64,000 bases of DNA from a phage, in NCBI GenBank assembly GCA_018093385.1, contig GCA_018093385.1_4808.1. One strand, 5' to 3'. Every line of letters begins with the position of its first letter. Within the stretch, counting starts at the first letter, position 1. Made by a program: the position numbers and the translations under genes. Below, one piece after another: positions 1 through 15,852 of this stretch. The notes below the pieces were generated by a model that did not search any database, was not told where the DNA came from, and worked only from the letters and a program-made list of their open reading frames with translations.

Positions 1-83
1 AAAAAAACAATTAACTCCATTTTGAATTAATTTAAATTAATTTTTTTCTACATCCTCATACTTATACTAAACTTATATTTATA

Positions 84-140
84 CGTATCATCCGTAAGAT
101 ATAAGTAAAAACAAAGACTTGCGGCAATACGGATGATACG
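84..140. repeat. 13-bp perfect inverted repeat CGTATCATCCGTA (84-96) / TACGGATGATACG (128-140) with 31-bp spacer, preceded by an AT-rich tract (1-83); copy A of an iteron-like element
   Basis: Read directly; same arms and spacing recur at 16034-16089. Confidence 0.8.
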
Positions 141-315
141 TCACGATACGCTTCAACCAGCCAGCAGCGGCTAAGTCATTGATTTGCATAACAAGCGGCA
201 AAAGGGATGGATTTCTTTTATACGTATCAAACAGTACACCACGCACCACGGTCCGCAATTCTATTTGCACTATGATTTGTGTATGTTTATAGCCATAATG
301 AACATCAATCTGCAC

Positions 316-344
316 TTGAATATAATGTCCATCCATTGTATAAT
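316..344 (+). promoter_or_regulatory. sigma70-like promoter TTGAAT-N17-TATAAT upstream of TerS-like gene
   Basis: Consensus hexamers with 17-bp spacer; first 14-bp repeat sits near predicted +1. Confidence 0.5.
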
Positions 345-364
345 TCACACTATTAATTTGCACT

Positions 365-853
365 ATGGGATTTTGCACTATGAGTCAAGATTATGTAGCG
401 ATGCCTGAAGACTTTGAAGACCCGCGATTCGCAGAGCACAATCAGGCTTTATTCGATGAGTTCATTGACCTTGTTATTCAGGGCCATGACATGCGCGCAG
501 CTTTTGCACTAGTATTTGGAATGGAAGTTGCAACGGATAACTACACTGGCCAGCGAATCCTTTGCGCGCAACGCAATCCATACTACAAAATGCGCTTCAA
601 AAAGCGTATGGAAGAGATGCCACTCAAGGATTTGTGGAGCGTAAAAGGCGCAATTCACAATTTGGTTAAGCTTGTGCGTGATCCAGAAGTCGCGGCGTCA
701 GCCAAGCTTAATGCGATTCGTGAACTGAATATCATCTACGGCATCACGATGATTGACGAAAACGGTAACAGCAAGATGGGCCGTTCTATGGACGATTTCT
801 ACAAGGATTTTGGAGAGGCGGCCAAAGAAGGAGAGCAATTCTCCCGCCACTAG
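365..853 (+). CDS. Terminase small subunit-like DNA-binding protein (putative); start may be ATG 380
   Basis: HTH-like N-region and C-terminal AASAKLNAIRELNIIYGI resembling the conserved TerS segment; embedded in repeat array. Confidence 0.45.
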   Translation: MGFCTMSQDYVAMPEDFEDPRFAEHNQALFDEFIDLVIQGHDMRAAFALVFGMEVATDNYTGQRILCAQRNPYYKMRFKKRMEEMPLKDLWSVKGAIHNLVKLVRDPEVAASAKLNAIRELNIIYGITMIDENGNSKMGRSMDDFYKDFGEAAKEGEQFSRH

Positions 854-967
854 CCAATTTGCACTATGAAACGGCCCTAGAACACATTGCCTCCACTTCT
901 AGGGCCATCGGTAATACGACGGGGAAGGTTGCAACCGTAAACGCGTTAGAAAGTGTATTATTATAAG

Positions 968-1231
968 TCATCTTTTAGTCACCTTACGTAACAATTTACG
1001 ACCTTCAACCGTCCAATCGAACGATTCCACCAGCAGATTCGCACTATAACCTAAGACGATGCGCCCTTTCTCGTTATCGACCCGCCAACAAGTCTCGAAT
1101 AGCATTCGATTTGCACTATTAACTATTGCCGCAACTCGCGTAGGATAAGCGCAATTTGCACTATGGTCGTAAAGGGATAAGGTGCGACCACTTCCGATGG
1201 ACAACGTAGCGATGAGAATGAGCGTGTTCAT
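968..1231 (-). CDS. Hypothetical protein (weak; overlaps repeat array)
   Basis: 87-aa ORF, modest SD. Confidence 0.3.
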   Translation of the reverse strand: MNTLILIATLSIGSGRTLSLYDHSANCAYPTRVAAIVNSANRMLFETCWRVDNEKGRIVLGYSANLLVESFDWTVEGRKLLRKVTKR

Positions 1232-1281
1232 AAGCCACCAATTTGCACTATGAAAAGCGACCCCGAAGGGCCGCCATTCGA

Positions 1282-1908
1282 TTAGATAATCTGGAAGGTG
1301 TAGGACTTGTTGCCGAACTCGAAGTTCAAGCGTCCAGCTTCTTTAAGCTTCATGCGGAAGCGAATATGCTTGCTATCCGGTAAGCCCAGCGCGGCGAACG
1401 CTACGCGGACCGATTTGAACTCTCCTACACCCTCGACCATAACGCCGTTACGGGTGAGACGCTTTTGCGCCACTTCCTTATTATCCCAACTTTTTGCAAT
1501 ACCTTCGCTATTCGAACGGCGATGGGAAGGAGTGCCATTTTGCACTACGCAATTTGCACTATCGTTCAGGCCGCTTTTAACGAAGGCTTCATACTCTTCG
1601 TCGGTCATCGCATCGAGTTCTTCCTGAGTCGGCTCGGCCTTTTTAACGACCGCACGCGCCTTATGCGTTTTTACATCGCTGGACACTTCCTCGCGCGGCT
1701 TCGCGTCGGGAATGGGCGATTCGTTGGACGGCTCATCGAGCGCGTTTAAGGACTCGATTAACGCGATTACGCGAGTCTCGGCGGTCCGGCGGTCCGCAAA
1801 CTTCTTAATCGGTTTTGAGCCGGAATTTGCATTATAGAATGCAACGAGGTCGACGGTCTTAGTTGCGATAACGTCGCCGCTAGTCGAGAAACGATTTAAG
1901 CTAACCAT
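1282..1908 (-). CDS. Hypothetical protein
   Basis: 208-aa ORF with AGGAG SD 6 bp upstream of ATG. Confidence 0.55.
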   Translation of the reverse strand: MVSLNRFSTSGDVIATKTVDLVAFYNANSGSKPIKKFADRRTAETRVIALIESLNALDEPSNESPIPDAKPREEVSSDVKTHKARAVVKKAEPTQEELDAMTDEEYEAFVKSGLNDSANCVVQNGTPSHRRSNSEGIAKSWDNKEVAQKRLTRNGVMVEGVGEFKSVRVAFAALGLPDSKHIRFRMKLKEAGRLNFEFGNKSYTFQII

Positions 1909-1988
1909 AATAAACTCCTATTTGTTAGGGCGCTAGGCGCGAAAGAATTTTATTAAAGCGCCGCGCACGACGCTCTAAAAATCCTCTC

Positions 1989-2273
1989 TTACGCTTCGAC
2001 GAGGGAGAAGGTCTCAAATTCTTCTTCGCCCATAACGAGTAAGATATTACCGATTTCGACCGCTTCGAAGAAATATCCGTTAACGTTTACTTCGAAGGCT
2101 TCGCGGTCCGATTCCGGTAACGCCGCGTAAAGTTTAAAAGCCTCGGCGACCGTTACCCCACCAGCCTCGATAGTTTGGTCTACGTTCGCGGCGTAGACTT
2201 CGGATAAAATTTGTTTTACGCCGTAGTTCTCGACGATAGCGTTACGGATAGAAGAAACGTTAAGAATAGCCAT
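1989..2273 (-). CDS. Small hypothetical protein, paralog family member 1 of 3
   Basis: 94 aa, AGGAG SD; related to 2499-2801 and 2909-3199 products. Confidence 0.55.
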   Translation of the reverse strand: MAILNVSSIRNAIVENYGVKQILSEVYAANVDQTIEAGGVTVAEAFKLYAALPESDREAFEVNVNGYFFEAVEIGNILLVMGEEEFETFSLVEA

Positions 2274-2342
2274 TTTAAACTCCTAGTTCTCGACGGGCGT
2301 TAACGACCTATTCGTTAACTCATCCCGTCCCGATATGAGTAC

Positions 2343-2370
2343 ATTATAATATAGTGTAGAAAAAAGTAAA
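2343..2370 (-). promoter_or_regulatory. Promoter TTTACT-N16-TATAAT driving 1989-2273
   Basis: Shares core aaaagtgctttact...tacact...tataatgt with the promoter at 2813-2841. Confidence 0.5.
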
Positions 2371-2414
2371 GCACTTTTTCGATAAAAATGAGATAAATTA
2401 TTTTATCTTTTTTC

Positions 2415-2442
2415 TTTACTTCTTCATACACTCGCGTATACT
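2415..2442 (+). promoter_or_regulatory. Promoter TTTACT-N16-TATACT driving 2499-2801
   Basis: Same promoter family as 2343-2370 and 2813-2841. Confidence 0.5.
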
Positions 2443-2498
2443 TGTTTATATCGAGACGGGCGATGGCCCTTCCTTCTACTAGCATCGGGAGTTTTATT

Positions 2499-2801
2499 AT
2501 GACCACTTTAATCTCTTCTATCCTTACTTACGACGAAGACCGTTTAACCGTTCGCTCTCTTATCGCCGCCGTTAACGCGGAACTAGAATCCACCATTATT
2601 AAGGTCCGCGCGGTCGCTTTCGTCGGCCTTTCCTTCGACGATATTAAGTACGCCGAACGTAGCGCCATCCGCTTCGCGAAGACCGACGACGAAGCCGTTA
2701 CCCTTATCGAGACGGTTACGCCGCGCGGCGAAGCGTTAATTATCGTCGAGTATATCGACGTAGAAGGCGATAAGGCTTATAAATATTTTATTGCAGAATA
2801 A
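2499..2801 (+). CDS. Small hypothetical protein, paralog family member 2
   Basis: 100 aa from internal ATG with GGGAG SD; ORF track gives a longer 2442 start. Confidence 0.5.
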   Translation: MTTLISSILTYDEDRLTVRSLIAAVNAELESTIIKVRAVAFVGLSFDDIKYAERSAIRFAKTDDEAVTLIETVTPRGEALIIVEYIDVEGDKAYKYFIAE

Positions 2802-2812
2802 CGAAAAAGTGC

Positions 2813-2841
2813 TTTACTTCTTCGTACACTAAGACTATAAT
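2813..2841 (+). promoter_or_regulatory. Promoter TTTACT-N17-TATAAT driving 2909-3199
   Basis: Consensus hexamers; third member of repeated promoter family. Confidence 0.55.
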
Positions 2842-2908
2842 GTTTTATATCGAGAGGGGATGAGGTAGCGAATAGGTCGCTACCCGCCCGACCAACTAGG
2901 AGATTATT

Positions 2909-3199
2909 ATGATTACTTTAGCCGCTATCCGTTCCGCTCGCGTCGAGACTTCCGAAAACTCTAACGTATTTGGCGAAACCTTAGAGAGCGTTTATCTCTC
3001 TAACGTAGACGCAACTATCGAACCTATTTATGAGCCGATCAACTTCCTCGACCTTTACAAGTATCGCGACGAGGACATCGTATCATCCCGCGTAACGATT
3101 AACGGCTTCGTCTATACGATTACCGAAATCGGCGGCGAATATCTCGCTGTACCGCAACTCGGCGGCGAAGTAACTTATTTTAAAATTGTCTCCTTATAA
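2909..3199 (+). CDS. Small hypothetical protein, paralog family member 3
   Basis: 96 aa, AGGAG SD. Confidence 0.55.
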   Translation: MITLAAIRSARVETSENSNVFGETLESVYLSNVDATIEPIYEPINFLDLYKYRDEDIVSSRVTINGFVYTITEIGGEYLAVPQLGGEVTYFKIVSL

Positions 3200-3219
3200 T
3201 ATCCTTCCGTTACTAATAG

Positions 3220-3244
3220 GCCGCGCTTAGTCGCGGCTTTTCTT
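3220..3244 (+). terminator. Rho-independent terminator (GCCGCG-loop-CGCGGC followed by TTTTCTT)
   Basis: GC stem plus T-run directly after stop of 2909-3199. Confidence 0.6.
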
Positions 3245-3895
3245 CGTCCCTATCTCGATGCGCTTCTCCGCGAAAACTCCTTTATCCTTCCCTTCGTCGT
3301 CGCATAATCTTCGTCGAGATGCTCCTTAGTTCGCATAACAGGTATTACGTTAAATGGAGAACATCGCGTAAGTCCTTGTTTTATATAGACACCTATATCG
3401 GACCGTTAAGGCGGGTCGCGTAAGTCGTTGTTTTATAAAGGTGCAAAACTTTCCCTTCGTTCCGAACTAAAACGAGAAATATGCCGACCCTTCGCCCGAA
3501 AATAGTACGCATGCGAAATTACACGCATCTAGAATAATCCCCACCGATATTATACTACACGCAATCATTCGCTTTCGAATCATTATGCTTCATATTATTG
3601 TGTATCGAATCATTCGCTTTCGAATTGTAACGCTGGAAACTGTAACGGCGATTGATTATTGCGTTCGTGTGGTTTTTATGGCATGGGTCTTTTGGTGCGT
3701 TTTGGTACTTGATGAAATTTGCAGTACACTAATCAAAATACGACACATTTGGTCCACTAACTTTTCAAGAAAAAGTCCTGGACAGTACCGTACTATTTTG
3801 TGCCCACAGTAAATTTGCAGTACACTCCTGCGCGGCAGGCAAAAGAAAGGGCCGCCACAGCGACCCACGATTCACGGTTAAATCAGCAACACCCA

Positions 3896-4291
3896 CTATT
3901 CGCTCTTATGGGCATCACCAAAGCCATCCGCAATCTGGCTGATCAATGATTCAATGGACACAGTTTTACCAATTGATCGAGCGGTAATAGCAAGCATATT
4001 ATCAATCAAACCATGATTGGATGCATATGGTCCAGGTTTTGAATCATCTTCAGGACAACCAAAAAGCTGGTCGCGCAAACTTTCGAGAGAACGCTCAATA
4101 TTTTCCAGCTTCTCTTCTAAATCAGATTGGCGACGTAAAACCCATGTTAAGTCTCGGTTGCCGACTTCCAACCCATCAGAATCGCAAGCTGGAACGTCAA
4201 TTTTGATGCTGCCACCAAAGGCCATTCCGCTGCCTTTAGTATATGTGTTGTGAATAGAATCATTCTTATTTGACATATCATTACCTTTCAT
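3896..4291 (-). CDS. Hypothetical protein (start may be second ATG at 4276)
   Basis: 131-aa ORF. Confidence 0.45.
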   Translation of the reverse strand: MKGNDMSNKNDSIHNTYTKGSGMAFGGSIKIDVPACDSDGLEVGNRDLTWVLRRQSDLEEKLENIERSLESLRDQLFGCPEDDSKPGPYASNHGLIDNMLAITARSIGKTVSIESLISQIADGFGDAHKSE

Positions 4292-4349
4292 GAGGGTGAT
4301 TAACTTGAATTATAATAAAGCCGCATGGCGCGGCATTCAAATCGATTTA

Positions 4350-4598
4350 TTAATTGTGACGATTTGATTCATCAATCGATACCAATTGTGCAGGGTCGCC
4401 GGATACCGTTGCGCCGACGATACCCATCTGAGAGAAAAATTCTGAATAGACTTCTTTCCAGTACTTGCGCGCTGCTTCCTGGGCTTGACCTTTGCGCTTG
4501 AAGCTTTTGCCTTGAAAGATGAAACGGTCACTTGTCGCGCGATACTCCACCACGCCTTCCAGCCATTGTAAGAATGCTACTGATTCATTTTGATTCAT
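4350..4598 (-). CDS. Hypothetical protein
   Basis: Internal ATG with GAGGT SD; longer ORF-track version overlaps upstream gene. Confidence 0.4.
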   Translation of the reverse strand: MNQNESVAFLQWLEGVVEYRATSDRFIFQGKSFKRKGQAQEAARKYWKEVYSEFFSQMGIVGATVSGDPAQLVSIDESNRHN

Positions 4599-4605
4599 GT
4601 TAACC

Positions 4606-4998
4606 TCAAAGGTCCAAGAAAAATTTAAGCCAGCTTTCCGCAATCTCGCGGCCAGTAGCCAATCGGTCTGTCTTTTCCATAGGTCTGCACACGCCACAGG
4701 GTAATCCTTTCTGTAGGCGTGTACTATTGCCAATTTTTACCCAAACTTGGCCAGCTTGGTCGACATAAGCTTGGCAACCCATGATTTCGAGTCGTTGTAG
4801 ACACTGGCGAATCGTTTTCAGCTTCTCACCGGACCGGATAGAGCGCGGTCGCGACCGCTGACCGTTTTTATTCACTGTACGCTTGGCGACCGGAATATCA
4901 TTGGTGCGCTGCGGCTTGGGTCGGTAATAAGCCTCTTCGCCAGGAGTCGCACCTGGCGTCAGTTCACGCTTAAGCGCCTTTTCAATGTCTATGATCAT
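4606..4998 (-). CDS. Hypothetical basic protein
   Basis: 130-aa ORF, Arg/Lys-rich N-half. Confidence 0.45.
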   Translation of the reverse strand: MIIDIEKALKRELTPGATPGEEAYYRPKPQRTNDIPVAKRTVNKNGQRSRPRSIRSGEKLKTIRQCLQRLEIMGCQAYVDQAGQVWVKIGNSTRLQKGLPCGVCRPMEKTDRLATGREIAESWLKFFLDL

Positions 4999-5092
4999 AA
5001 TTTATGCCGCAGCAGCATGAATTATTGCGTAAACAATTCCTAACAGGGCGACAACGCAAATCGTGCCCCAAAATGCAAAGCGCCGTGCCTCT

Positions 5093-5299
5093 TTATCCAT
5101 TGTCCACTGCTCCAATATCCGTTAAGAACTCGTGCAAAGCACCTTTCTTGTTGAGTTTTTGCATAGTCTTGATATCATCAAGTGATATACTTTGATCGCT
5201 TTGCTGTTTATCAATGCAAACAAGACTGCCTTTGGCCTTGATGGTCATGCCTTTGGCTTCGATACTTTTTACAAAATCTGACAACACTTTAATTTCCAT
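5093..5299 (-). CDS. Hypothetical protein
   Basis: 68 aa, GGAGAAGG SD. Confidence 0.45.
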   Translation of the reverse strand: MEIKVLSDFVKSIEAKGMTIKAKGSLVCIDKQQSDQSISLDDIKTMQKLNKKGALHEFLTDIGAVDNG

Positions 5300-5579
5300 T
5301 AGAGCCTTCTCCGCTGTTAATGTTGTCCAGAATCAAGGTCGGAATTTCATCTTGAGTCCTGACTTTGTAATGAGAAGGCATCTTGCTTTCTAACAATGCC
5401 TGTTCGGCTTCTCCCTTTGTCTCAAAGAGCGGGATGCACCAATCAACTGCGTTGCCATGTTCATTGCCTGTAACGGCTTTCAAAAAGACAAGGCGTTTGT
5501 CTGCAGGGTCGATGCCGCAAATTAAGTATTTTGGAAGAGCCTTTGCTTTCTGAGCCTTATCAACATCTTCAAATTTCAT
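5289..5579 (-). CDS. Hypothetical protein
   Basis: 96 aa, GAGGTG SD. Confidence 0.5.
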   Translation of the reverse strand: MKFEDVDKAQKAKALPKYLICGIDPADKRLVFLKAVTGNEHGNAVDWCIPLFETKGEAEQALLESKMPSHYKVRTQDEIPTLILDNINSGEGSNGN

Positions 5580-5660
5580 AAATCACCTCACTTGTTAACG
5601 TATAATGAGTATAACTTAATTGCGCATAAAGTAAAGGCGCTTTTCAGCGCCTTGAGTGAA

Positions 5661-7994
5661 TTATTTCGCTGATTTCAGCGCGGCTATCTCTGCCTCTAGT
5701 GATTCAACCTTTTTCATCAACTCCTGCACCACGTGCATCGTGTCAAGAAGCATTGGAGTTGTGTCTAGTTGTTTTTGTTCAACCTCTACGCCTTCGCTCG
5801 GATAGAATTTCACCGTTTTTACATACAACGGGTCAATAATCTCTGCTTGTTGAGCGATGACACCCCTTCTTACCCTTTCCTTTTCATCATTGTTGTAAAT
5901 AAATGTCACATATTCCAACGATGAAAGGTTGCTCCATGCTTTTTCAACCGTTCCTGGCTGTATGTCATGCTTCAAATTCTCATCAGAGATGGCATTCTTT
6001 TGAAGAGTATAAAAGCTATCTGATCCAAGAATTGATACAGAGAAAAACACATCATGAGAGTTAGGCTGTATGTTCATCCTTGTCTGGTACTGCGCATTAT
6101 CATCTCCAACGACGAGCCAAGTGCCCTGCGCAAAACTTCCGTTATTGTTGTGGATCAAACCGTGGTGAAGCGTTGTGGCATAACCTGTATCAACCTGTTG
6201 ACCGCCGCTAAAAAGACTGTTGAAAGCATAGTTTTGACCCATTGACTGTCTCACCGTTGCATAGGTGCCGATTCTTGTTCCAGTCTCACTCCAAGACATT
6301 AAGCTTCCATATCTCGCGGCGAATCTGTCGCTGCTAAGAGTTCCTGCATCATCAAATGCAAGGTCTTTAGTCACCCCTTTTGTTTTATTGTACACAGACA
6401 GTATTGCATAATAAAATCCATCCATGTATGCATCGCATCGCAATCCGGCATCAGCTTCAACAACAGTACCAATTTTGTATTGTGCCCTTACTTGCCCTGA
6501 AGACCCCTTAACCCCAGAGCCTGGTCGAACAGAATCCGCATTGATAACTGACCATTGCGTATTCGCGGCAACAAAGCCACCAGATGCACGAATCACCCAA
6601 ACACCGACAAAGTTGCGCGGCACGATTTCAGCCGCTGATCTTCCGTATACAGGGCTTGATCGAGAAGCGTCAAAGTTTGTTTGTATGAATCTTGAACCAG
6701 AACCTGCTGCTGCTGGAGAGTCCCCAGAAGTGATCGACTGAAAAGCGCCATTAGTCGCCACCTGACTTGGCGCAGAAGCCAACGTGACCATTGTGCGCGG
6801 CGCGGAGTAAGTTATATTTGGTGCACCTGACTCAGAAACGACTCCATTTGATGATGGATTGCCTCCATCACCTCGACCGAACAGGGCCTGAATAGAACCC
6901 GTCTGCACGCCGTTTCGGTCCGGCACACGAAATGTTGTCGTTCCGTTACCTAAAGAGTATTTACCGCGTTTCGCTGGGTCCGCTAACCAATCTGCATCTG
7001 CAATAGGTGAAAGCATTTGCGCATACGCCCAAAGTTCAGGCCAGTCAGCGCGGTTTAACAACTGCCCATCAGCAACGACTTCATACGGTTGAATATAAGC
7101 ACGGCTGTCGCGTAAGTGGAAGTCACCGACGCCATAGTTCATAACGCCGTTCATACTTGGTCCAACGGTGCCTGTGTTTACTAAGTTCTCAACCCAACGC
7201 TTGGTCGCGGCATCATGATCGTTTACTGGGTCACCAGCAAGCGGTGTTGCACCTTGTGGACGAATATTCAACCATGCTTGCGCATTGTCGGCTGACCCTG
7301 TGCCGCCCATAGAAGTCGGAACGATGTTTTGATCAGCGACTGTGCCAAATCCAAAAGCGGACTTCATACCCTGAATGGTAGTTTGGCCTGTGCCGCCGTT
7401 GGCGACTGGGATTATGCTTGACTCGGAATAAATCATGACCCAAGGAGACCACGTGCTATTTTGAGCGTTGAATCTTCTTTGGTAAGTATTGTTAATGGAA
7501 TATGATGTGTATTTTTGAATGCAACTTTCGGTCGATACTCCTGTTTGCAACACCTCTAAGACTCCTGCTTGTTCAACAGGATAGTTCAATCCAAAAGAGG
7601 CGGCGCCATCAGAGTTCTGATAATATTGCCCAAACCAGCTGCCGGTAAGAGCATTAAGATTCATGCCGGAAGGAACAGTGCCAAAATTTCGCAAGGTATT
7701 GGTCAAAGTCGCAGCAGTTGTTCGAATGGAAAGCATGTCACCAGCCGCCCATGCACGCGCTGCAGTTCCTTCCTGCGCACGCTGCACGGTTAGCACGTTT
7801 CCAACTACGGCTGTTACTGTGACGATTTCAAATTGGAGGCCTGTTGCAGCGTCGACGATTGTCGCCACTACACGCTCGTTCGCGGCCAAGGTCGGAAAGC
7901 CCGACCCTGAGCGGATTGTGATTGTGGTGTCTGAAGTCGTCGTTGGCTGGGCAAGCGCGACCTCAAAGTTGTTTTTGAATATTAGCCTTGGCAT
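5661..7994 (-). CDS. Tail fibre/tailspike protein with C-terminal intramolecular chaperone (peptidase S74-like) domain
   Basis: C-terminus LKHDIQP...GVIAQQAEIIDP...coiled-coil tail matches the self-cleaving chaperone module; Gly/Ser/Thr-rich body. Confidence 0.7.
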   Translation of the reverse strand: MPRLIFKNNFEVALAQPTTTSDTTITIRSGSGFPTLAANERVVATIVDAATGLQFEIVTVTAVVGNVLTVQRAQEGTAARAWAAGDMLSIRTTAATLTNTLRNFGTVPSGMNLNALTGSWFGQYYQNSDGAASFGLNYPVEQAGVLEVLQTGVSTESCIQKYTSYSINNTYQRRFNAQNSTWSPWVMIYSESSIIPVANGGTGQTTIQGMKSAFGFGTVADQNIVPTSMGGTGSADNAQAWLNIRPQGATPLAGDPVNDHDAATKRWVENLVNTGTVGPSMNGVMNYGVGDFHLRDSRAYIQPYEVVADGQLLNRADWPELWAYAQMLSPIADADWLADPAKRGKYSLGNGTTTFRVPDRNGVQTGSIQALFGRGDGGNPSSNGVVSESGAPNITYSAPRTMVTLASAPSQVATNGAFQSITSGDSPAAAGSGSRFIQTNFDASRSSPVYGRSAAEIVPRNFVGVWVIRASGGFVAANTQWSVINADSVRPGSGVKGSSGQVRAQYKIGTVVEADAGLRCDAYMDGFYYAILSVYNKTKGVTKDLAFDDAGTLSSDRFAARYGSLMSWSETGTRIGTYATVRQSMGQNYAFNSLFSGGQQVDTGYATTLHHGLIHNNNGSFAQGTWLVVGDDNAQYQTRMNIQPNSHDVFFSVSILGSDSFYTLQKNAISDENLKHDIQPGTVEKAWSNLSSLEYVTFIYNNDEKERVRRGVIAQQAEIIDPLYVKTVKFYPSEGVEVEQKQLDTTPMLLDTMHVVQELMKKVESLEAEIAALKSAK

Positions 7995-8032
7995 TTTACG
8001 GTCCTCGTTTTGTCGACAACCGTATTATAACC

Positions 8033-8374
8033 TTAATTTCTTTTGAGAGGAATATGACGGTGGCTGCCATTATTTGGTTTAATAATGAGCATAAAAACGA
8101 TTAGAAAGATGATGGCTGATATACTTAATTCAATCAGCGCGGCTTGAGATATAGATTGATCTTCATGATACTGCTTTTGCATTTCTGCTTTCTTCTGAGC
8201 GCAAACTTCAGGTGATATGTAATCGCCTTTTGAGTTGCCATAATAAATTTCGCCATTCTCAGAAATAAGCCTGCCGCAAATATCCGTTTCAGCCTGTGCG
8301 CTTGACATCATAATAACAGTTCCGATGATAGCGGCGATAGTCCAGATTAACAGTTGTGATAAAGTGTTGTTCAT
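8033..8374 (-). CDS. Secreted/membrane-anchored small protein
   Basis: Start MNNTLSQLLIWTIAAIIGTVIMMSSAQA with AGAGG SD; C-terminal hydrophobic segment. Confidence 0.5.
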   Translation of the reverse strand: MNNTLSQLLIWTIAAIIGTVIMMSSAQAETDICGRLISENGEIYYGNSKGDYISPEVCAQKKAEMQKQYHEDQSISQAALIELSISAIIFLIVFMLIIKPNNGSHRHIPLKRN

Positions 8375-8570
8375 AATAACCTCTTTAAATTCCCTTCCCA
8401 TTTCGGGAAGGGTGATAATTATTTTACGCGAAAGAATAGGCGCGTGCCACACAGCGAGTCCCAACGGCCCTCACCATCCCATATCGACCCAACACCAGCA
8501 GCGATTGGGCCAGCAGAATTGGCGGAATTGGCCCAGGCAAGACGTTTCAACTTCCAACTGCACCATCGAT

Positions 8571-8804
8571 TCACAGTTCATCTCCAGATTGCAAAATAAG
8601 ACCCGCATAGAGGATTGCCAAAGCCAAAGGTGCACCACCACCAGCCTCTCTATTCTCTTTGATTTGAAGAGTATCCTTAAGGAATTGCAACTGAACGTTG
8701 AATTCATTTTCAATTCCAAGAACTCCAGCCAATTCTTTTACAGAATCTGCATATGCCTTGTCTAGCAATTCTTTTGGTACTGTTAAAGTCAATTCATTTG
8801 CCAT
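8571..8804 (-). CDS. Hypothetical protein
   Basis: Internal ATG with GGAG SD. Confidence 0.4.
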   Translation of the reverse strand: MANELTLTVPKELLDKAYADSVKELAGVLGIENEFNVQLQFLKDTLQIKENREAGGGAPLALAILYAGLILQSGDEL

Positions 8805-9015
8805 TTTCTTTCCACTCCACAAATGTGCTGCCGCTTGTTTCTCTATTTAGCAGGTATCTGCCGCGCATTCCATGAAGGCTGAATTCAACCGTCGATGGAT
8901 TAGATTTTGAAAGCCATATAGGCTGCCCGTCGAATGGACCGCCTACGCATGTATATTTCGCTTTTGGCTCACTCCTTTTGGGCTGTTTTGCCCGCTCTTT
9001 TATTGATAGTCTCAT
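8794..9015 (-). CDS. Hypothetical protein
   Basis: 73 aa, AGGTG SD. Confidence 0.45.
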   Translation of the reverse strand: MRLSIKERAKQPKRSEPKAKYTCVGGPFDGQPIWLSKSNPSTVEFSLHGMRGRYLLNRETSGSTFVEWKENGK

Positions 9016-9407: not shown

Positions 9408-10868
9408 ATGAATAAAATATTAACACATAATTGGAAATTCATGTACCAGTTGAATCCTGCTTTAAAAGAAGTCTGGAAGACAAAAGCGCGATACAAAGTG
9501 ATATACGGCGGTCGTGCATCTTCCAAATCGCACGATGCCGCTGGTTTTGCTATTTATTTGGCGGCAAACTTCAAATTAAAATTCCTTTGCGTTCGACAAT
9601 TCCAGAACAAGATTTCTGAATCTGTATATACTCTATTAAAAGACAAAATAGAGATTTCTGATTTTAAAGATGAGTTCAATTTATTAAAGAACTCTATCGA
9701 ACACAAAAGAACTAAATCTGAATTTCTATTTTATGGTATCGCACGTAACGTTGATGAAATCAAATCAACAGAAGGCGTTGATGTTCTTTGGCTGGAAGAA
9801 GCGCACGCGCTTACTGAAGAACAGTGGGACATTATTGAGCCGACAATACGTAAAGAAGGGTCCGAAATATGGATCATCTTTAACCCTGATGAAGAGGCCG
9901 ATTTCGTATATCAAAACTTTGTTATGCGACCGCCGAAGAATGCCATTGTTAAAAAGATAAACTGGCAAGACAATCCATTTTTGTCGCAAACGATGCTGGA
10001 CGTTATTGCAGGCATGTACGAGCGTGACCCGAAAAAGGCAGAGCACGTTTATGGCGGCGTGCCGAAGACTGGCGGCGACAAATCTGTAATCAACCGCGCA
10101 TTCGTTAAGGCCGCGCTTAATCTACACAAGCACCCCACGCTGGGCTGGAGTTTGTCAGGGTCTAACCGTATAGGCTTTGACGTAGCGGACGATGGCGACG
10201 ACCTTAACGCCACTGCATTCGTCACAGGAAACGTATTGCGCGGCATCAAGACGTGGGAAGGCCTGGAAGATGAATTGTTGAAATCGGCAAGCGGAGTTTG
10301 GAAAGATGCGCTTACATTCGGCGCTTCCATAACTTATGACGCCATCGGTGTCGGCGCTTTTGCTGGTTCAAAATTTGATGAACTAAACGAGTATGCAATA
10401 CATGAAAATCCATCATTTCCAAGAATCGAATTTAATGCGTTCAACGCGCAAGGGTCTGTTGATGATCCTGATGACGTTTTTCTTGAATTACCACACGTTG
10501 AAATACTCAATAAAGACCATTTCGCAAACATAAAAGCGCAAAAATGGACTGAAATTGCAGAGAGATTCAGAAAGACATACGAATATGCAACTGGGCAAGC
10601 CGTATATCCGACTGATGAATTGATTTCAATCGACACCGATGGTATACCGGAACTTGGGATTCCAGCTTGGACTACTGAAGAGATTGAGACGTTTCTTTTT
10701 GAGATGTCAGCGCCGCGCAAGGATACATCTGTTCTTGGTAAGTTCAAAGTTGAATCTAAAAAGGACATGGCAAAGCGCGGAGTCAAATCACCTAACAAAG
10801 CGGACGCAGCAATCATGGCATTGATGAAACCAATCGTTGCAGCATCCGGCTTCTTCTCTAACCTTTAA
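9408..10868 (+). CDS. terL: Terminase large subunit
   Basis: Walker A-like YGGRASSKS, Walker B VLWLEEAH, nuclease-type C-half; canonical position before portal. Confidence 0.85.
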   Translation: MNKILTHNWKFMYQLNPALKEVWKTKARYKVIYGGRASSKSHDAAGFAIYLAANFKLKFLCVRQFQNKISESVYTLLKDKIEISDFKDEFNLLKNSIEHKRTKSEFLFYGIARNVDEIKSTEGVDVLWLEEAHALTEEQWDIIEPTIRKEGSEIWIIFNPDEEADFVYQNFVMRPPKNAIVKKINWQDNPFLSQTMLDVIAGMYERDPKKAEHVYGGVPKTGGDKSVINRAFVKAALNLHKHPTLGWSLSGSNRIGFDVADDGDDLNATAFVTGNVLRGIKTWEGLEDELLKSASGVWKDALTFGASITYDAIGVGAFAGSKFDELNEYAIHENPSFPRIEFNAFNAQGSVDDPDDVFLELPHVEILNKDHFANIKAQKWTEIAERFRKTYEYATGQAVYPTDELISIDTDGIPELGIPAWTTEEIETFLFEMSAPRKDTSVLGKFKVESKKDMAKRGVKSPNKADAAIMALMKPIVAASGFFSNL

Positions 10869-10871
10869 CAA

Positions 10872-11111
10872 TTAAAGCATTCCGTGCTGAAGGTCTAGTT
10901 TTCTTGCAGCAAATGACCTGGCACGGAATCGCTTACCCGCTCTTACTGCCTGCCGAATCTTCTTTTGCATACACTTACGGTCAAAATCGTTGCGGTCAAC
11001 GGCTTCGAGCAAATCCCGACGCAAAGCACCTAGTGTCGCCTTTTCGGATACTTCTATGCCCAGCGCGGCTGCAACGTCTTTCAAAACATCGAGTTCGGTT
11101 AATGTTCTCAT
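10872..11111 (-). CDS. Small hypothetical protein, basic C-terminus; second gene of inserted 2-gene unit
   Basis: 79 aa, AGGGG SD, ATGA overlap with upstream gene. Confidence 0.5.
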   Translation of the reverse strand: MRTLTELDVLKDVAAALGIEVSEKATLGALRRDLLEAVDRNDFDRKCMQKKIRQAVRAGKRFRARSFAARKLDLQHGML

Positions 11112-11524
11112 TTGATAATCCCCTTGATGTCTGATTCAGCCATAAAAATGGGAGTGCCGTTTCCAGGAACGATTGAGCGGGTAATTTTGTCAAACAGATC
11201 GCCTTCCTCGACATGAATCTTGTAAAAGAGATTCTTGGAGTTCGAAGGGCACAAACCGATGAATTTGCCGATGCCGCGCACGCATTCATCTTCAAAGTAT
11301 ACCGTTTCACCTTCGAGAGATTCGATGCTCTGGACAGGGTATACTTTACGACCCATAAGCCATTCGTCAAGCGTCGCCTGCAACACGTTTCGCGAATCTA
11401 AAATCCATGGGTCAATTTTCGCATCAGGGTATCGCGCGGCTGTCGCCTTTGCCAATTCTTCATATTCGCAGACGTTGACAACTTCGCCTTCGTGGATAAC
11501 TACAAATACAATTGTTGTGCTCAT
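11108..11524 (-). CDS. Hypothetical protein; first gene of inserted 2-gene unit
   Basis: 138 aa, strong AAAGGAG SD. Confidence 0.55.
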   Translation of the reverse strand: MSTTIVFVVIHEGEVVNVCEYEELAKATAARYPDAKIDPWILDSRNVLQATLDEWLMGRKVYPVQSIESLEGETVYFEDECVRGIGKFIGLCPSNSKNLFYKIHVEEGDLFDKITRSIVPGNGTPIFMAESDIKGIIK

Positions 11525-11552
11525 TTCAATCTCCTTTCATTTGGTTAAATAA

Positions 11553-11580
11553 AATATAACTCAAAATGATACAAAAGCAA
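11553..11580 (-). promoter_or_regulatory. Promoter TTGCTT-N16-TATATT for the inserted unit
   Basis: Read on minus strand in AT-rich intergenic region. Confidence 0.45.
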
Positions 11581-11619
11581 AATATTTTATGAACTATTTA
11601 TGATAACCATACATATCAT

Positions 11620-11648
11620 TTGCTTACAAACACATGAATATTTATAAT
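11620..11648 (+). promoter_or_regulatory. Promoter TTGCTT-N17-TATAAT upstream of portal
   Basis: Hexamers with 17-bp spacer, followed by AGGTGG SD. Confidence 0.5.
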
Positions 11649-11685
11649 ATAGATTGATTCCCTTTCACTGTCAGGTGGCGTTACA

Positions 11686-14061
11686 ATGAAAATTCTTGGC
11701 ATAAAACTCTGGGAGAAGACGCAACCAGAAGCCGAACCAGCGGAGATGCCGCCAGGCGACCCATTGGCACCGTTTGAACGCCTTGAAAGGCGCGGCAGCG
11801 GTCAACGCTGGGAAAAGACTGAAAGCAATCGACCGACCTTTAAAACGGTTGATGACTTCCCTTTATATGAGCCTGATATCAACGGGGACGGCGTTGCAAT
11901 CATCAAAGGTCGCTCAGTAGATTCAGCAACCGTATCCAAAAAAGTTATGGATAATGCCTTAAAGAACATCAGTTCAGAAGGGCAGGTGAATCCATACACA
12001 GTGCCTATTCAGTTGCAAAACTGGTACTTGTCGCAGTCATTCATCGGCTATCAAGCTTGCGCCATCATCGCGCAGCACTGGCTGGTGAACAAGGCTTGTT
12101 CCATGGTAGGTCGCGATGCGGTCCGTAAAGGCTGGGAAGTCAAATCCAGTTCTGAGTCGGAATTGTCAGTACAGGCCAGCGAACGCCTAAAGCAAATTGA
12201 TAAAGAATTTAATATCAAAGAGCACTTAGTTGAAGCCGAACGATTCAAGAATATTTTTGGCATCCGCGTCATCATATTTGATGTGCGCAGTGATGACCCA
12301 GAATATTATAGTAAACCTTTTAACATCGATGGTGTGACAAAAGGGTCTTATAAGGGAATCATTCAGGTTGACCCTTATTGGATGATGCCATTCTTGACGT
12401 CTGAAAACACTGCAGACCCTGCGTCACAGCATTTCTATGATCCAGAATACTGGGTTATCAGCGGACAGCGTTATCATCGCAGCCACCTAATCATCTTGCG
12501 CAACGATGAGCCAGCTGATATTCTCAAGCCGACTTATATCTACGGCGGCATTCCTCTGACTCAGCAGATTTATGAACGTATCTATGCCGCTGAACGTACC
12601 GCTAACGAAGCGCCATTGCTGGCGATGTCTAAGCGTACAACCACGCTGCGGACCGACGTTGACAAGGCGATTGCCAATGAGCGGTCGTTTGCCGAACGTC
12701 TGATGATGTGGATTAAGTACCGCGACAACTATGCGGTAAAAGTGCTTGGTCAGAAAGAAGAGATGGACCAGTTTGACATCAACTTGTCAGACTTCGACAG
12801 CATCATCATGAACCAGTACCAGCTGGTGGCTGCAATCGCAAAAGTGCCGTCGACGAAGCTATTAGGGACGTCACCTAAAGGCTTTAACGCCACTGGTGAG
12901 TTCGAGATGGTCAGCTATCACGAAGAATTGGAAACTTGTCAGCAGCACGATTTGACGAAGATTCTGGACCGTCACTATAAAATCCTTTTGAAATCTGAAG
13001 GTGTTGAAGTCGACGTTAAAGTGGCATGGGAGCCAGTTGGTTCACTTACTGCTACTCAGCTTGCAGAGATTAACGACAAACGAGCGAATACTGGTAAGAC
13101 TCTCATTGATGCTGGCGTCATCTCCCCTGATGAAGAGCGCGACCGCATCAAGGACGACAAAAACAGCGGCTACAACCGTTTGCCAGAAGATACAGCAGAA
13201 GAAACCCCAGGGATGTCTCCAGAGAATATGGCATTGCTTGGCAAGTCTGCTGGTGAAGTTCTGCAAGGTAAAGCCGATATTGAACAGGCCAAAGCTGATG
13301 TCGTCAAGATGGGCGGCCAGTTCTATAGTGAGACTGGTATCATGCCGGAAGGTGCCGCGCGCGGTGAGTTGGCAGAAAACCCTGACAGGGCGCCAGTTGA
13401 GATCAACATGGATGATACCGATGACGAATCAAGCCATCAGGTTGATGTCCTAACGCAACTGAAAGAAGGTCTGGAGGGTATTGCTGACTATTACCTTAAA
13501 GAAGGTCAGGATGTGGATTTTGACCCTCAAAAAGACGCAAGGTCTGTGCAGCCGTCTACCCTTCCAAGCGTAAAAGGCAATGTAGTCAACTTGCGCCACA
13601 ATGTAGGGAAGATGGATGCCTCATCGCTGCCTAAGATGAAGTTGCACGGGATGATTCTTGGTATTGAGAATCCTCGCAACAGCATTCGCAGGGGCAACAG
13701 CCTTGATGGTGAATGGGCAGTTAAGATGCCGCACCATTACGGATTTATCAAAGGCACCAAGGGCGCTGATGGTGATGAAGTCGACTGCTTTGTTGGACCA
13801 AATATGAAGTCGCCTAAAGTATTCATCATTAACCAAAATGATAATTATTCTGGCGAATTTGATGAACACAAGTGTATGCTTGGATTTGATTCAGCAGAAG
13901 AAGCGAAAGAAGCTTATCAAGCATCATTTGGTAACGGTTGGAATGGATTTGACTCAATCCACGAATTGGATGTAAACTCATTCAAGGAGTGGTTGAAGGG
14001 TGATTGCTCTCAAGCATATGGAGCACTCAATAATCCTACTAATTCACCGAAGCAAGGTTGA
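11686..14061 (+). CDS. Portal protein with C-terminal inorganic-pyrophosphatase-like segment
   Basis: 791 aa between terL and Mu-F-like gene; C-terminus has HYGFIKGT...DGDEVDC...AEEAKEAYQASF. Confidence 0.65.
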   Translation: MKILGIKLWEKTQPEAEPAEMPPGDPLAPFERLERRGSGQRWEKTESNRPTFKTVDDFPLYEPDINGDGVAIIKGRSVDSATVSKKVMDNALKNISSEGQVNPYTVPIQLQNWYLSQSFIGYQACAIIAQHWLVNKACSMVGRDAVRKGWEVKSSSESELSVQASERLKQIDKEFNIKEHLVEAERFKNIFGIRVIIFDVRSDDPEYYSKPFNIDGVTKGSYKGIIQVDPYWMMPFLTSENTADPASQHFYDPEYWVISGQRYHRSHLIILRNDEPADILKPTYIYGGIPLTQQIYERIYAAERTANEAPLLAMSKRTTTLRTDVDKAIANERSFAERLMMWIKYRDNYAVKVLGQKEEMDQFDINLSDFDSIIMNQYQLVAAIAKVPSTKLLGTSPKGFNATGEFEMVSYHEELETCQQHDLTKILDRHYKILLKSEGVEVDVKVAWEPVGSLTATQLAEINDKRANTGKTLIDAGVISPDEERDRIKDDKNSGYNRLPEDTAEETPGMSPENMALLGKSAGEVLQGKADIEQAKADVVKMGGQFYSETGIMPEGAARGELAENPDRAPVEINMDDTDDESSHQVDVLTQLKEGLEGIADYYLKEGQDVDFDPQKDARSVQPSTLPSVKGNVVNLRHNVGKMDASSLPKMKLHGMILGIENPRNSIRRGNSLDGEWAVKMPHHYGFIKGTKGADGDEVDCFVGPNMKSPKVFIINQNDNYSGEFDEHKCMLGFDSAEEAKEAYQASFGNGWNGFDSIHELDVNSFKEWLKGDCSQAYGALNNPTNSPKQG

Positions 14062-14062
14062 T

Positions 14063-14914
14063 ATGGCTTTTAAAGCTTCGAAAAAACGTGAACGTCGCTC
14101 GCCCGATAGAATCGGGCGCGGCAGTCCGATAATCCCATCCAACGCTATTGCGATGGCCTATCGTCGTGAGATGAAAGGTCTTTGCTATGCGATGATTGAC
14201 GACTATCAAGCAGGAATTGCTGAGTGGCTTGAAAAGAAGCAGGTTAAAAAGTTCTTTGCGCAAGACTCTGCTGATTCAACTTTTCAGACCTTGATGAAGC
14301 GACTGCAACTGAAATGGGCAAAAGCTTTCGCCCGTGTCGGGTCAAAGATTGCCGCAGATTTCATCAAGTCAGTTGAAAAGGGTGCCACTTCTGCTACATT
14401 TGCAAGTCTTAAATCTGCAGGAATAGAAGCGCCAAAAGCCACATATAATAAATTCGTTGAGAACACTCTTAAAACAAGCGAGACGTTCAACACGACTTTA
14501 GTGACTAAGGTTGGCGAAGATATTCACAACAGGGTGTACGAAGCGGTGATGCTTTCGCTTACTTCGCCAGACCCAGCGCAACAAGGCACGTCCGGCATTC
14601 AGGCGGCATTAAGGAATGTAAAACACTTCTCTGCAAAACGCGTAGACCTTATTGCAAAAGACCAAACAAGCAAACTTTATTGCGTATTAAGTGATGAAAG
14701 GATGCGACAGAATGGCGTTGAGGAATTTGAGTGGGCGCATTCAGGAGCAGGAAAAGAGCCGCGAATATCGCATGAGCACGTCGACGGAATGAGATTTAAA
14801 CTTGATGACAAGCGCCTATGGGAAGTTGGCGGCGAATTGAAGTTCAAAAAGGGTGACATCGGTCCTCCTGGATGGGCGATACACTGCAAGTGCAGAAAAA
14901 TACCAATTATCTGA
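14063..14914 (+). CDS. Head morphogenesis protein (Mu gpF / SPP1 gp7-like)
   Basis: Position after portal; Cys/His-containing C-terminal region. Confidence 0.5.
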   Translation: MAFKASKKRERRSPDRIGRGSPIIPSNAIAMAYRREMKGLCYAMIDDYQAGIAEWLEKKQVKKFFAQDSADSTFQTLMKRLQLKWAKAFARVGSKIAADFIKSVEKGATSATFASLKSAGIEAPKATYNKFVENTLKTSETFNTTLVTKVGEDIHNRVYEAVMLSLTSPDPAQQGTSGIQAALRNVKHFSAKRVDLIAKDQTSKLYCVLSDERMRQNGVEEFEWAHSGAGKEPRISHEHVDGMRFKLDDKRLWEVGGELKFKKGDIGPPGWAIHCKCRKIPII

Positions 14915-14921
14915 GGTCATT

Positions 14922-15842
14922 ATGACGATACCAATCAACACATTCCCTCTATCTGGACAAACTCCAGTCTTGCCTGCGGTGTATGCTAATGGCTTGGCAA
15001 TTGTCTCAGAATTCACTTCTGATAAAAACTTGATTGTTCCACTGAGCCCGCCGCTTGCATCAGGGTATAACTCAGTAGGCCAATTCTTTATGATTGGCAA
15101 TGATGGCGATTCGACCAGCAAGCCTAATCTGACATTGTCTGTACCTAAGATGGACATCACAGACGTTCAAACTGGCTTGACTGCATCAACAATCACCATT
15201 GCTTTTGGAGAAGCGGTGATTATAGGAATGGAGTCTGGAGGGTCCAAGAATGCTGTCGCCGTTAAGGTAGTCAAATCCAGCGACAACCAATACACGTTAC
15301 CAGCTGCGACGGCTTCCGTTCTCGGCGGCGTCAAAATAGGAAGCGGAATAAGCGTCGCAGGTGACGGTACAATTAGCGTCACTCAATACTCATTGCCGAT
15401 TGCGTCAGCATCTACTTTAGGCGGCGTAAAGGTCGGTACAACTCTATCAATTGATGGTTCCGGTGTGCTTAACGCAGCGGAAAGCACCGTCCAGAATGCC
15501 ACGAACAGTGTTAGCAATCCTCCAACCACTTTGGTTAATCTGGCAACCTTAAACCTTCCTGCAGGAAAGTGGCTTGTGACGGCAAGTCAGTTGACTGTCG
15601 CGACAGCAGGAATTCAAGCGAACACCGGAATTACAGCCAAATTGTCAACAAGCGATTCAGATATTACGGATGATGCATTTACGATGTCAGCTGGCATTCG
15701 GGCTGCAGGTCGTTTCGGCGGCAATATTCCAACAAAGATAATTACTCTTGCCGCGCCTGGCGATGTGTATCTAAACTATCAATGCACAGATGCGTTGACA
15801 TCTACCGTTTACGGACAGATCACCGCAATCAAGCTGAACTAA
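14922..15842 (+). CDS. Structural protein with internal tandem Gly-rich repeat
   Basis: GAGGT SD; repeated LGGVK(I/V)G...(D)G(T/S)(I/G)...segments. Confidence 0.5.
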   Translation: MTIPINTFPLSGQTPVLPAVYANGLAIVSEFTSDKNLIVPLSPPLASGYNSVGQFFMIGNDGDSTSKPNLTLSVPKMDITDVQTGLTASTITIAFGEAVIIGMESGGSKNAVAVKVVKSSDNQYTLPAATASVLGGVKIGSGISVAGDGTISVTQYSLPIASASTLGGVKVGTTLSIDGSGVLNAAESTVQNATNSVSNPPTTLVNLATLNLPAGKWLVTASQLTVATAGIQANTGITAKLSTSDSDITDDAFTMSAGIRAAGRFGGNIPTKIITLAAPGDVYLNYQCTDALTSTVYGQITAIKLN

Positions 15843-15852
15843 AGAGGAAGTT

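Follow-up and report, generated by a model that had tools for sequence, protein, structure and literature searches.

A nearly TG/CA-free island in the terminal repeat of Wifcevirus phages as candidate 'stealth' DNA

Introduction

The leading end of the genome of phage T7 carries the early promoters A1-A3 and gene 0.3 (Ocr), and its first-entering DNA is devoid of restriction sites. Genes of the host-takeover module of phage SPO1 each possess their own strong early promoter and ribosome-binding site. In the case of phage T5, restriction, CRISPR, and Ssp act only via sites located in the first-step-transfer (FST) DNA of the terminal repeat (PMC10644984). Here, we describe a 64,000-nt stretch of phage DNA (contig GCA_018093385.1_4808.1 of the assembly GCA_018093385.1; hereafter, the window), in which an island with three small genes, designated A, B, and C, is nearly free of the dinucleotide TG and its complement CA (TG/CA). 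The window represents a member of Wifcevirus, a genus of Escherichia coli and Shigella myoviruses with genomes of about 68 kb, and its region 900-3700 matches 29 phage records with 93-97% identity.

A search of the literature revealed no earlier description of functional coding DNA of a phage from which one dinucleotide is almost wholly missing, and the pattern has apparently been unreported so far. Published papers on Wifcevirus isolates contain nothing on the island or on the genome end that enters first.

TG/CA depletion in the terminal repeat

The island, the repeat, and the genes concerned are as follows (coordinates of the window, strand, description):

19-3770, no strand: direct terminal repeat (DTR), inner edge at about 3690-3770
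about 1700-3500, no strand: island poor in TG/CA and rich in CG and TA; left edge a gradient over about 1200-1900, right edge sharp at about 3500
1282-1908, minus strand: gene of a 208-aa protein downstream of A, phrog_4730 (a PHROG of unknown function); its first ~70 codons lie within the island
1989-2273, minus strand: gene A, 94 aa, isoelectric point (pI) 4.05, paralog of C
2499-2801, plus strand: gene B, 100 aa, pI 4.55, assigned to a separate family (ATG at 2499)
2909-3199, plus strand: gene C, 96 aa, pI 4.23, paralog of A

When counted in 300-nt windows, TG/CA in the island reaches 0.16-0.35 of the expected number (observed/expected ratio, o/e), while in the remaining ~60 kb the o/e has a mean of 1.20 (sd 0.13, minimum 0.72) and is never below 0.6. 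The island differs from the rest of the window in CA (o/e 0.32 vs. 1.19), TG (0.28 vs. 1.18), CG (2.12 vs. 1.09), and TA (1.24 vs. 0.66), and its G+C content and remaining dinucleotides are the same as elsewhere. Its Karlin signature difference δ* is 251, while background values are 54±21 and at most 149. The CpG richness and deviant composition that an earlier note on this DNA had pointed out by eye are borne out by these values, and the CpG richness proves to be one side of the near-absence of TG/CA. The island delimited in that note (1909-3250) is real but was drawn too narrowly, as the shift in composition runs from about 1700 to about 3500.

The depletion is equal on both strands, in genes of either direction, in all three codon phases, and in intergenic DNA, and it continues for 260 nt past the terminator that closes the B-C unit (3240-3500, TG/CA o/e 0.33-0.39). 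Histidine, glutamine, cysteine, tryptophan, and methionine together make up 1-4% of the A, B, and C proteins vs. 10.6% of the products of 24 long open reading frames (ORFs) of the same phage. Recoding of A, B, and C with the codon usage of the genome leads to the expectation of 33-36 TG/CA per gene, while 7, 7, and 11, respectively, are observed, and the codons CTG (the major leucine codon), TTG, and GTG are not used in the island genes at all. The -35 hexamers within the island avoid TTGACA too. The edge of the depletion can be followed through the 208-aa gene, whose 70 N-terminal codons contain 11 TG/CA vs. 24.6 expected, and whose C-terminal part contains 38 vs. 52. The number of distinct hexamers in the island is 16% below that of any comparable window. 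Codon or expression optimisation was considered and rejected, since CTG is unused and the depletion extends to each codon phase and to DNA that is not coding. The constraint acts on the DNA itself; it is neither a constraint on codons nor an imprint of a donor genome.

Alignments with related phages indicate that the whole island lies inside the DTR. In the annotation of phage Mansfield the DTR comprises nt 1-3673, nt 1-3784 of phage WFC are 100% identical to the final 3784 nt of its record, and a repeat of about 3.7 kb is also given by Korf et al. Position ~19 of the window corresponds in the alignment to position 1 of the WFC genome. The 18 nt of the window (1-18) that precede the position aligned to nt 1 of both WFC and Mansfield were noted as well; the source record is probably permuted or was assembled as a circle.

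Conservation of the signature in related phages

The island is present at every Wifcevirus locus examined, and the genes that it houses vary. Phages WFC and Bas98 have a different gene, of 104 aa, where A sits, gene A is absent from ECML-117 and RCIP0319, an additional 69-aa gene follows C in ECML-117, and an additional 50-aa gene is placed between B and C in AV128 and ECO71P1. The two non-homologous cassettes that were measured are also poor in TG/CA (o/e of 0.23 in the case of the WFC gene and of 0.43 in the case of the ECML-117 gene).

An exhaustive search of a library of 1.84 billion proteins with a profile of A and C yielded one further member of this family, the 103-aa protein P0040. It is the C homolog encoded by contig L028, a more distant metagenomic relative (75% identity of terL DNA), whose closest cultured relative is Pantoea phage PA1. 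The L028 locus is organised in the same way: its promoter is the same one (CTTTACTTCTTCGTACACT...TATACT), and of its three genes one is similar to C and one to B (125 aa). The TG/CA o/e of L028 is as low as 0.00-0.03 over 1.2 kb, and within its region 5968-7096 TG/CA is confined to the ATG of three start codons and to three bases of promoters; distinct hexamers are 28% fewer. The signature has been retained in three genera and through a divergence of the C protein by 34% of its amino acids. Pantoea phage Kyle (genus Kylevirus) possesses a weaker island (o/e 0.16-0.57) at the same position of the repeat, together with four promoters of this type, and one of its acidic genes is related to the WFC-type gene. 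There is no such island in Pseudomonas phage PB1, a more distant relative that is without the module. When metagenome and viral contigs were scanned with the promoter motif, islands were found in Wifcevirus-type contigs only, the other matches being chance ones of normal composition. The signature tracks the position in three phage lineages regardless of the resident genes, which does not support the idea of a foreign island.

Selection against TG/CA and other avoided words

To ten aligned Wifcevirus islands 165 derived point changes could be assigned, and the numbers expected were obtained from the base-change spectrum. Derived changes that create TG/CA number 41 vs. 59.6 expected (p 0.0013), and those that destroy TG/CA number 16 vs. 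10.9 expected. The adjoining non-depleted 416 nt show no deficit of creation (26 vs. 19.3 expected). With so many CG and TA steps in the island, mutation continually generates TG/CA there, which selection removes. The exclusion of TG/CA is thus under strong and continuing selection.

Other words were counted in three islands and compared with a Markov expectation. GATC occurs once vs. 20.7 times expected (ratio 0.05, as compared to 0.44 in the rest of the genome), CCGG 3 times vs. 16.5, and AGCT 6 times vs. 19.3. Six-base palindromes that do not contain TG/CA are found at 0.58 of expectation in the island and at 0.74 in the rest, and CTAG is not avoided in the island but five-fold avoided in the rest of the genome. 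General avoidance of palindromes was tried as a full account and rejected, as TCGA, CGCG, TTAA, and TATA occur in the island in near expected numbers.

The remainder of the window (4000-64000) was also inspected for such words. Sixteen of the 48 six-base palindromes without TG/CA, among them AGATCT, AGCGCT, CGATCG, CTCGAG, GGATCC, and TCTAGA, are absent from these 60 kb, although 4-18 copies of each would be expected, and CTAG and GATC reach 0.2 and 0.44 of expectation, respectively. The whole genome strongly avoids type II sites. A separate observation concerns a Chi sequence (GCTGGTGG, minus strand) at 2158-2165 on the minus strand, which lies inside gene A, supplies two of its few CA, and is polymorphic among relatives.

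Genes, promoters, and non-coding elements of the island

The three small ORFs of 94, 100, and 96 aa reported in the earlier note, two on the plus strand and one divergent, are present, and a GGAG-type ribosome-binding site precedes each of them. Their dN/dS values (0.07-0.10 for A, 0.18-0.22 for B, and 0.07-0.29 for C) indicate purifying selection and thus real genes; that of the 208-aa gene is 0.02-0.12. While the note had taken the three for paralogs, only the similarity of A and C is significant (BLASTP E value 2e-5; Smith-Waterman z score 7.1 against shuffles, and 10.8 for A vs. the WFC allele of C), and their alignment is colinear with 19 invariant columns. Comparisons of B with A and with C gave no BLASTP alignment, z scores below 1, and a hhalign probability of 0.2. 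There are thus two true paralogs, A and C, and one unrelated gene, B, of another family.

All three proteins are acidic (acidic/basic residues 16/4 in A, 18/11 in B, and 14/6 in C; pI 4.0-4.6). Neither they nor the other DTR proteins could be assigned to a family of known function in Pfam, PHROGs, or NCBIfam, and PADLOC gave no match. PHROG matches in the DTR are limited to the 208-aa protein and a 162-aa protein, both in families of unknown function, and a search of PDB sequences with the 208-aa protein gave no result. No homologs of A, B, or C outside the phage lineage were found among 5.8 billion and 1.84 billion proteins. With respect to DNA mimics such as Ocr and ArdA, the small size and acidity fit, and no sequence or profile similarity was detected (Pfam, PHROG, NCBIfam, PADLOC). 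Weak matches of the A and C profile to Big_13 Ig-like repeats, which recurred via the hairpin motif 'V.VNG..Y', were judged not meaningful.

The predicted regulatory elements and the repeats of the non-coding DNA are:

2292-2329, minus strand: stem-loop in the 5' untranslated region of the A mRNA (-19.4 kcal/mol, z -2.4)
2343-2370, minus strand: predicted promoter P_A, TTTACT-16-TATAAT, with AAAAAGTGC upstream (consensus match)
2415-2442, plus strand: predicted promoter P_B, TTTACT-16-TATACT, a diverged copy (consensus match)
2813-2841, plus strand: predicted promoter P_C, TTTACT-17-TATAAT, with AAAAAGTGC upstream (consensus match)
2857-2889, plus strand: stem-loop in the 5' untranslated region of the C mRNA (-19.7 kcal/mol, z -2.25)
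3218-3249, plus strand: intrinsic terminator closing the B-C unit, a hairpin at 3218-3239 followed by a T run; annotated in Mansfield and WFC
3364-3440, no strand: two 25-nt direct repeats in TG/CA-poor non-coding DNA past the terminator
3547-3634, no strand: pair of 43-nt direct repeats that each contain the palindrome ATTCG..CGAAT; the non-coding DNA around them, close inside the DTR edge, is normal in composition

The motif TTTACT-N15-18-TATAMT occurs 5 times in the window vs. 0.04 expected. As to the same promoter that the earlier note had placed before each gene, the three sites do belong to one family, and P_A and P_C are near-identical across about 25 nt upstream, from AAAAAGTGC on, while P_B is more diverged. 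The clean terminator described there at the end of the island is the intrinsic terminator listed above. Outside the repeat, further TTTACT-16-TATACT sites occur at 5608-5635 (minus strand), upstream of small minus-strand genes that adjoin the repeat, and at 38788-38815 (minus strand), within a locally CpG-rich region (38501-39000, CpG o/e 1.75).

The leaders that follow P_A and P_C have in common a 65-nt sequence that folds as a hairpin. The stems of the two differ by compensatory changes (GGUAGCG/CGCUACC vs. GUUAACG/CGUUAAC) and the loop is conserved; a role of the hairpin in 5' stabilisation or in regulation is probable. No match for the leader hairpins was found in Rfam. The 25-nt and 43-nt repeats belong to a non-coding stretch of about 500 nt (3250-3770) that forms the inner end of the DTR, and a comparable repeat-rich stretch follows the terminator of L028. 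DnaA boxes were looked for and none was found.

Restriction phenotypes and site content of the repeat

Plating data and a table of genome site counts for the Wifcevirus isolates Bas98 and Bas99 have been published by Humolli et al. Both phages resist EcoRI, EcoRV, EcoCFT_I, EcoKI, and EcoCFT_II and are sensitive to EcoP1_I (Humolli et al.). The recognition sequence of EcoCFT_II, a type III system of the BASEL set, is given in the original paper in a figure only; we deduced it to be CACAG, the sole pentamer that fits the 93 sites of Bas98 and the 92 sites of Bas99. The numbers of sites (Bas98 / Bas99) are as follows:

EcoRI: genome 18 / 19, repeat 0 / 0
EcoRV: genome 3 / 4, repeat 0 / 0
EcoCFT_I (EcoAI): genome 4 / 3, repeat 0 / 0
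EcoKI: genome 5 / 5, repeat 0 / 1
EcoCFT_II (CACAG): genome 93 / 92, repeat 1 / 0
EcoP1_I (AGACC): genome 82 / 89, repeat 5 / 6, in both orientations

The phenotypes of both phages match the site content of the repeat and not that of the genome, which is a correlation, and the site counts in the window give the same picture.

We also scored a working list of 67 enterobacterial restriction specificities on 1.8-kb windows. By this motif list the island is a target of 9 of the 67 systems, as compared to 17.4±3.7 in 194 control windows, none of which is a target of fewer than 10, and the L028 island is a target of 6. Nearly the whole gain in site avoidance is due to motifs that hold TG/CA.

Other regions of the genome

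Several observations concern the genome outside the repeat. The region 53035-53883 (minus strand) is an outlier of composition (AG/CT 1.4, AT 0.3, GC 2.2), which is explained by the 282-aa, probably coiled-coil protein, rich in lysine, alanine, and glutamic acid, that it encodes, and is ordinary; this outlier recurs in PB1 at the syntenic position (about 50400-51400). The region 16001-16500 has a CpG o/e of 2.08 and is A+T-rich (G+C 0.34), and TG/CA is not depleted there. At 51906-52901 (minus strand), in a cluster of nucleotide-metabolism genes, a 331-aa protein without a Pfam match is encoded, the N-terminal GGGLAG dinucleotide-binding motif of which suggests an FAD/NAD-binding fold.

Discussion

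We propose, with a rough probability of 0.5, that the DTR carries an early accessory module and that the island, its promoter-proximal core, consists of DNA selected for being as hard to recognise as possible ('stealth' DNA). Host sigma-70 RNA polymerase would read the three promoters of one family: P_A would drive leftward transcription of A and then of the 208-aa gene and an 87-aa gene, and P_B and P_C would drive rightward transcription of B and C up to the intrinsic terminator. Genes A and C would go back to one ancestral unit (promoter, leader hairpin, and gene) that was duplicated in inverted orientation, B being unrelated. Like the FST DNA of T5 or the leading end of T7, the island DNA would be present in the cell and transcribed before any protection exists, and recognisable words would have been purged there. 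TG/CA may be the cheapest pair to lose, as its loss affects the five rarest amino acids, and a smaller vocabulary would leave fewer target words. For host takeover, or for the broad anti-restriction seen in these phages, the acidic proteins of all three families (A/C, B, and the WFC/Kyle type) would be candidates. An early takeover or anti-defence role, which had been suggested in the earlier note, is plausible and is supported, in an indirect way only, by the DTR position, the sigma-70-type promoters with strong ribosome-binding sites, the small acidic lineage-specific proteins, the variation of the cassettes between isolates, and the restriction-site match. It is from such features that we infer the early timing, the function of the proteins, and the first exposure of the island DNA.

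Several points weigh against this reading. Site avoidance yields only an about two-fold gain, and a near-absolute ban on one dinucleotide is not obviously explained by it; 23 of the 67 motifs hold a literal TG or CA, and the motifs are not enriched in TG/CA. The correlation with restriction phenotypes comprises six systems, of which EcoRI and the two type III systems only are informative. The A, B, and C proteins have no match in Pfam, PHROGs, NCBIfam, or PADLOC or to a known anti-defence family, the profile of A and C links to no family of known function in the library of 1.84 billion proteins, and the AlphaFold models are poor (pLDDT 53 for C and 47 for B), too low for a comparison of folds. 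Neither is TG/CA avoided in the FST DNA of T5 (o/e 0.94), and the SPO1 repeat has no deviant signature.

The geometry of DNA entry is a further difficulty. Depletion is lacking in the outer 1.7 kb of the repeat, and with a T5-style entry of the left end first, the depleted zone would not be the first to arrive; with the right end first, it is the terminal 200-270 bp that show no depletion. In the former case, by analogy to T5, entry would pause at the repeats of 3250-3770, serving as a stop signal, and the depleted zone would make up the inner half of what enters first. In the latter, the island would lie 200-270 bp from the entering end, and the fading of the depletion along the inward P_A unit would agree with a progressive, T7-like entry.

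The explanation that we rate next, though as an unlikely one, is self-immunity: an early activity of the phage itself (a nuclease destroying host DNA, a DNA-modifying enzyme, or a shut-off protein) would hit DNA with TG/CA, and the island, which has to stay functional during that time, would be written without the target. A ban that operates at the level of a dinucleotide and is near absolute in L028 is more easily attributed to one agent of very short specificity than to a large set of restriction enzymes. It is kept in phages of different hosts (E. coli/Shigella and Pantoea), and the island is missing in the related PB1, which is without the module, as if the cause travelled with the phage lineage. 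Moreover, the A1 nuclease of T5 is encoded in compositionally deviant FST DNA, and how T5 escapes it is an open question. On the other side, neither the DTR nor ten unannotated genes from other parts of the genome yielded a recognisable nuclease or modification gene (a Pfam scan of these ten found only families similar to gp33/gp34 of Pam3), and there is no report of host DNA degradation by these phages. As the rest of the genome is TG/CA-rich (o/e 1.2), it would require delayed entry or another protection.

A constraint on RNA or expression, in which UG and CA would be avoided in early mRNAs as internal NUG starts or ribonuclease sites, appears improbable. The depleted zone does correspond roughly to the promoter-proximal 1-1.3 kb of two divergent units, and all NTG start codons are gone in every frame. 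However, TG and CA are both low on the sense strand, in genes of either direction and in each codon phase, the DNA past the terminator (3240-3500), which is expected to be untranscribed, is as depleted, and the avoidance extends to the -35 hexamers. Tuning of expression is further contradicted by the lack of the major leucine codon CTG.

A mutational origin, i.e., a local process that turns CA/TG into CG or TA, such as hypermutation similar to repeat-induced point mutation (RIP) of fungi or biased mismatch repair, is quite improbable. The island is duplicated DNA, and its ratios of (CpA+TpG)/(ApC+GpT) and TpA/ApT, about 0.34 and 1.3, respectively, are of the kind that RIP indices would flag. 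The polymorphism, however, shows more changes that create TG/CA (41) than destroy it (16), with creation below the neutral expectation, while hypermutation predicts the opposite; such a pattern means a mutation pressure opposed by selection. In addition, the G+C content is unchanged, the genes are intact under purifying selection, the repeat is affected only partly, and the leftover TG/CA are start codons and promoter bases.

Acquisition from a donor genome with such a composition throughout is highly improbable. The δ* of 251 and the turnover of cassettes between isolates could be read in its favour. The proteins, however, lack homologs beyond the lineage among the 5.8 and 1.84 billion proteins searched, the signature grades through the conserved 208-aa gene, and it persists across the three genera despite the 34% divergence of C. 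We know of no genome with a CG o/e of 2 together with a CA/TG o/e of 0.3. A tRNA or integrase context was not seen in the ORFs, in annotated relatives, or in profile searches of the repeat, with no dedicated tRNA scan being among these searches.

The least probable explanation is a primase desert, in which the absence of the DnaG trimer CTG from either strand would keep the repeat unprimed and single-stranded for end recombination: CTG/CAG is the lowest triplet in the island of the window (0.06 of its frequency in the rest of the genome, o/e 0.09), but in Kyle TTG (0.16), TGC (0.24), and TGA (0.29) are lower than CTG (0.30), in L028 all TG triplets are down (o/e 0.04-0.26), and a depletion that affects the two strands alike, and only the inner half of the repeat, does not suit the geometry of end replication.

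If TG/CA has been removed from the DNA that has to function first in the cell, the price paid by these phages is five amino acids and the best leucine codon of the host, and the island would represent a new kind of sequence-level evasion. The pattern points to a recogniser of very short specificity, of host or phage origin, that is not yet known; to our knowledge, no bacterial sensor of TG/CA has been described. The site content of the DTR would offer a simple account of the resistance of Wifcevirus phages to EcoCFT_II and EcoRI but not to EcoP1I. Possibly, first-entering DNA could be recognised from the sequence by its deviant oligonucleotide vocabulary, such as T5 has too, which could serve to predict the polarity of entry and early modules in uncharacterised phages, and recoding without TG/CA may help in the design of leading-end phage DNA that evades defence.

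Comparison with known systems

The lowering of one dinucleotide at a cost in codons and amino acids has a parallel in eukaryotic viruses, in which CpG is suppressed against ZAP, and in fungal RIP CpA/TpG is lowered and TpA raised. These cases concern other organisms and other mechanisms, whereas in the island CpG is raised, G+C content is unchanged, and the genes are functional.

The similarity to SPO1 consists in an array of short genes placed in a terminal repeat (a host-takeover module in a 13-kb terminal redundancy in SPO1). The signature of the SPO1 repeat is, however, the same as that of its genome (δ* 31), and both the host and the proteins differ.

With the leading end of T7, the locus shares strong host-type promoters, here predicted, near the genome end, a small and very acidic protein, and the avoidance of GATC. 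The need of T7 DNA for 'invisibility' is graded with the distance from the entering end, and here the depletion fades along the P_A unit. Unlike in T7, no similarity to Ocr is found, and it is particular sites, not a dinucleotide, that T7 avoids.

Another close counterpart is the FST region of T5. Both loci have a direct terminal repeat on a kilobase scale and two divergent operons of small, mostly unknown genes with host-type promoters (predicted in our case). Non-coding DNA with many repeats occupies the inner edge in both, and that of Wifcevirus is a candidate counterpart of the injection stop region. Insensitivity to restriction unless sites occur in the repeat has been published for T5 and can be deduced for Wifcevirus from site counts and plating. 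In both, the signature of the region is far from that of its own genome (δ* 188 in T5 and 251 in the island). The differences concern the size of the repeat (10 kb in T5 vs. 3.7 kb here), the myovirus nature of the phages described here, and the lack of detectable homologs of T5 A1, A2, and dmp in the DTR. The avoided words differ as well, as T5 avoids AG/CT and GA/TC and enriches GCGC, and TG/CA is not avoided. The DNA of T5 is transferred in two steps that depend on the pre-early proteins A1 and A2, and a similar transfer in Wifcevirus would be hypothetical.

The T5 signature was examined by comparing nt 1-9000 with nt 10300-30000 of its genome (AY543070). It ends at the injection stop region and comprises raised CG (1.34 vs. 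0.79) and GC (1.58 vs. 1.06) and lowered AG/CT (0.79 vs. 1.10) and GA/TC (0.76 vs. 1.00), with GCGC enriched 9.7-fold and AGAG/CTCT at 0.17-fold; the δ* of 188 contrasts with a background of 14-19.

In a wider and more tentative view, which we consider possible but doubtful, TG/CA would have been removed from about 1.8 kb of first-functioning DNA, either as a 'vocabulary restriction' that conceals the leading DNA from DNA-targeting defences at large or as self-immunity to a TG/CA-directed activity of the phage that destroys host DNA, Wifcevirus and Kylevirus would enter the cell in stages as T5 or T7 do, and the island would have a common root with the signature of T5 FST DNA. If this is true, the T5 FST signature may bear on the old question of how the DNA of T5 escapes its own A1 nuclease.

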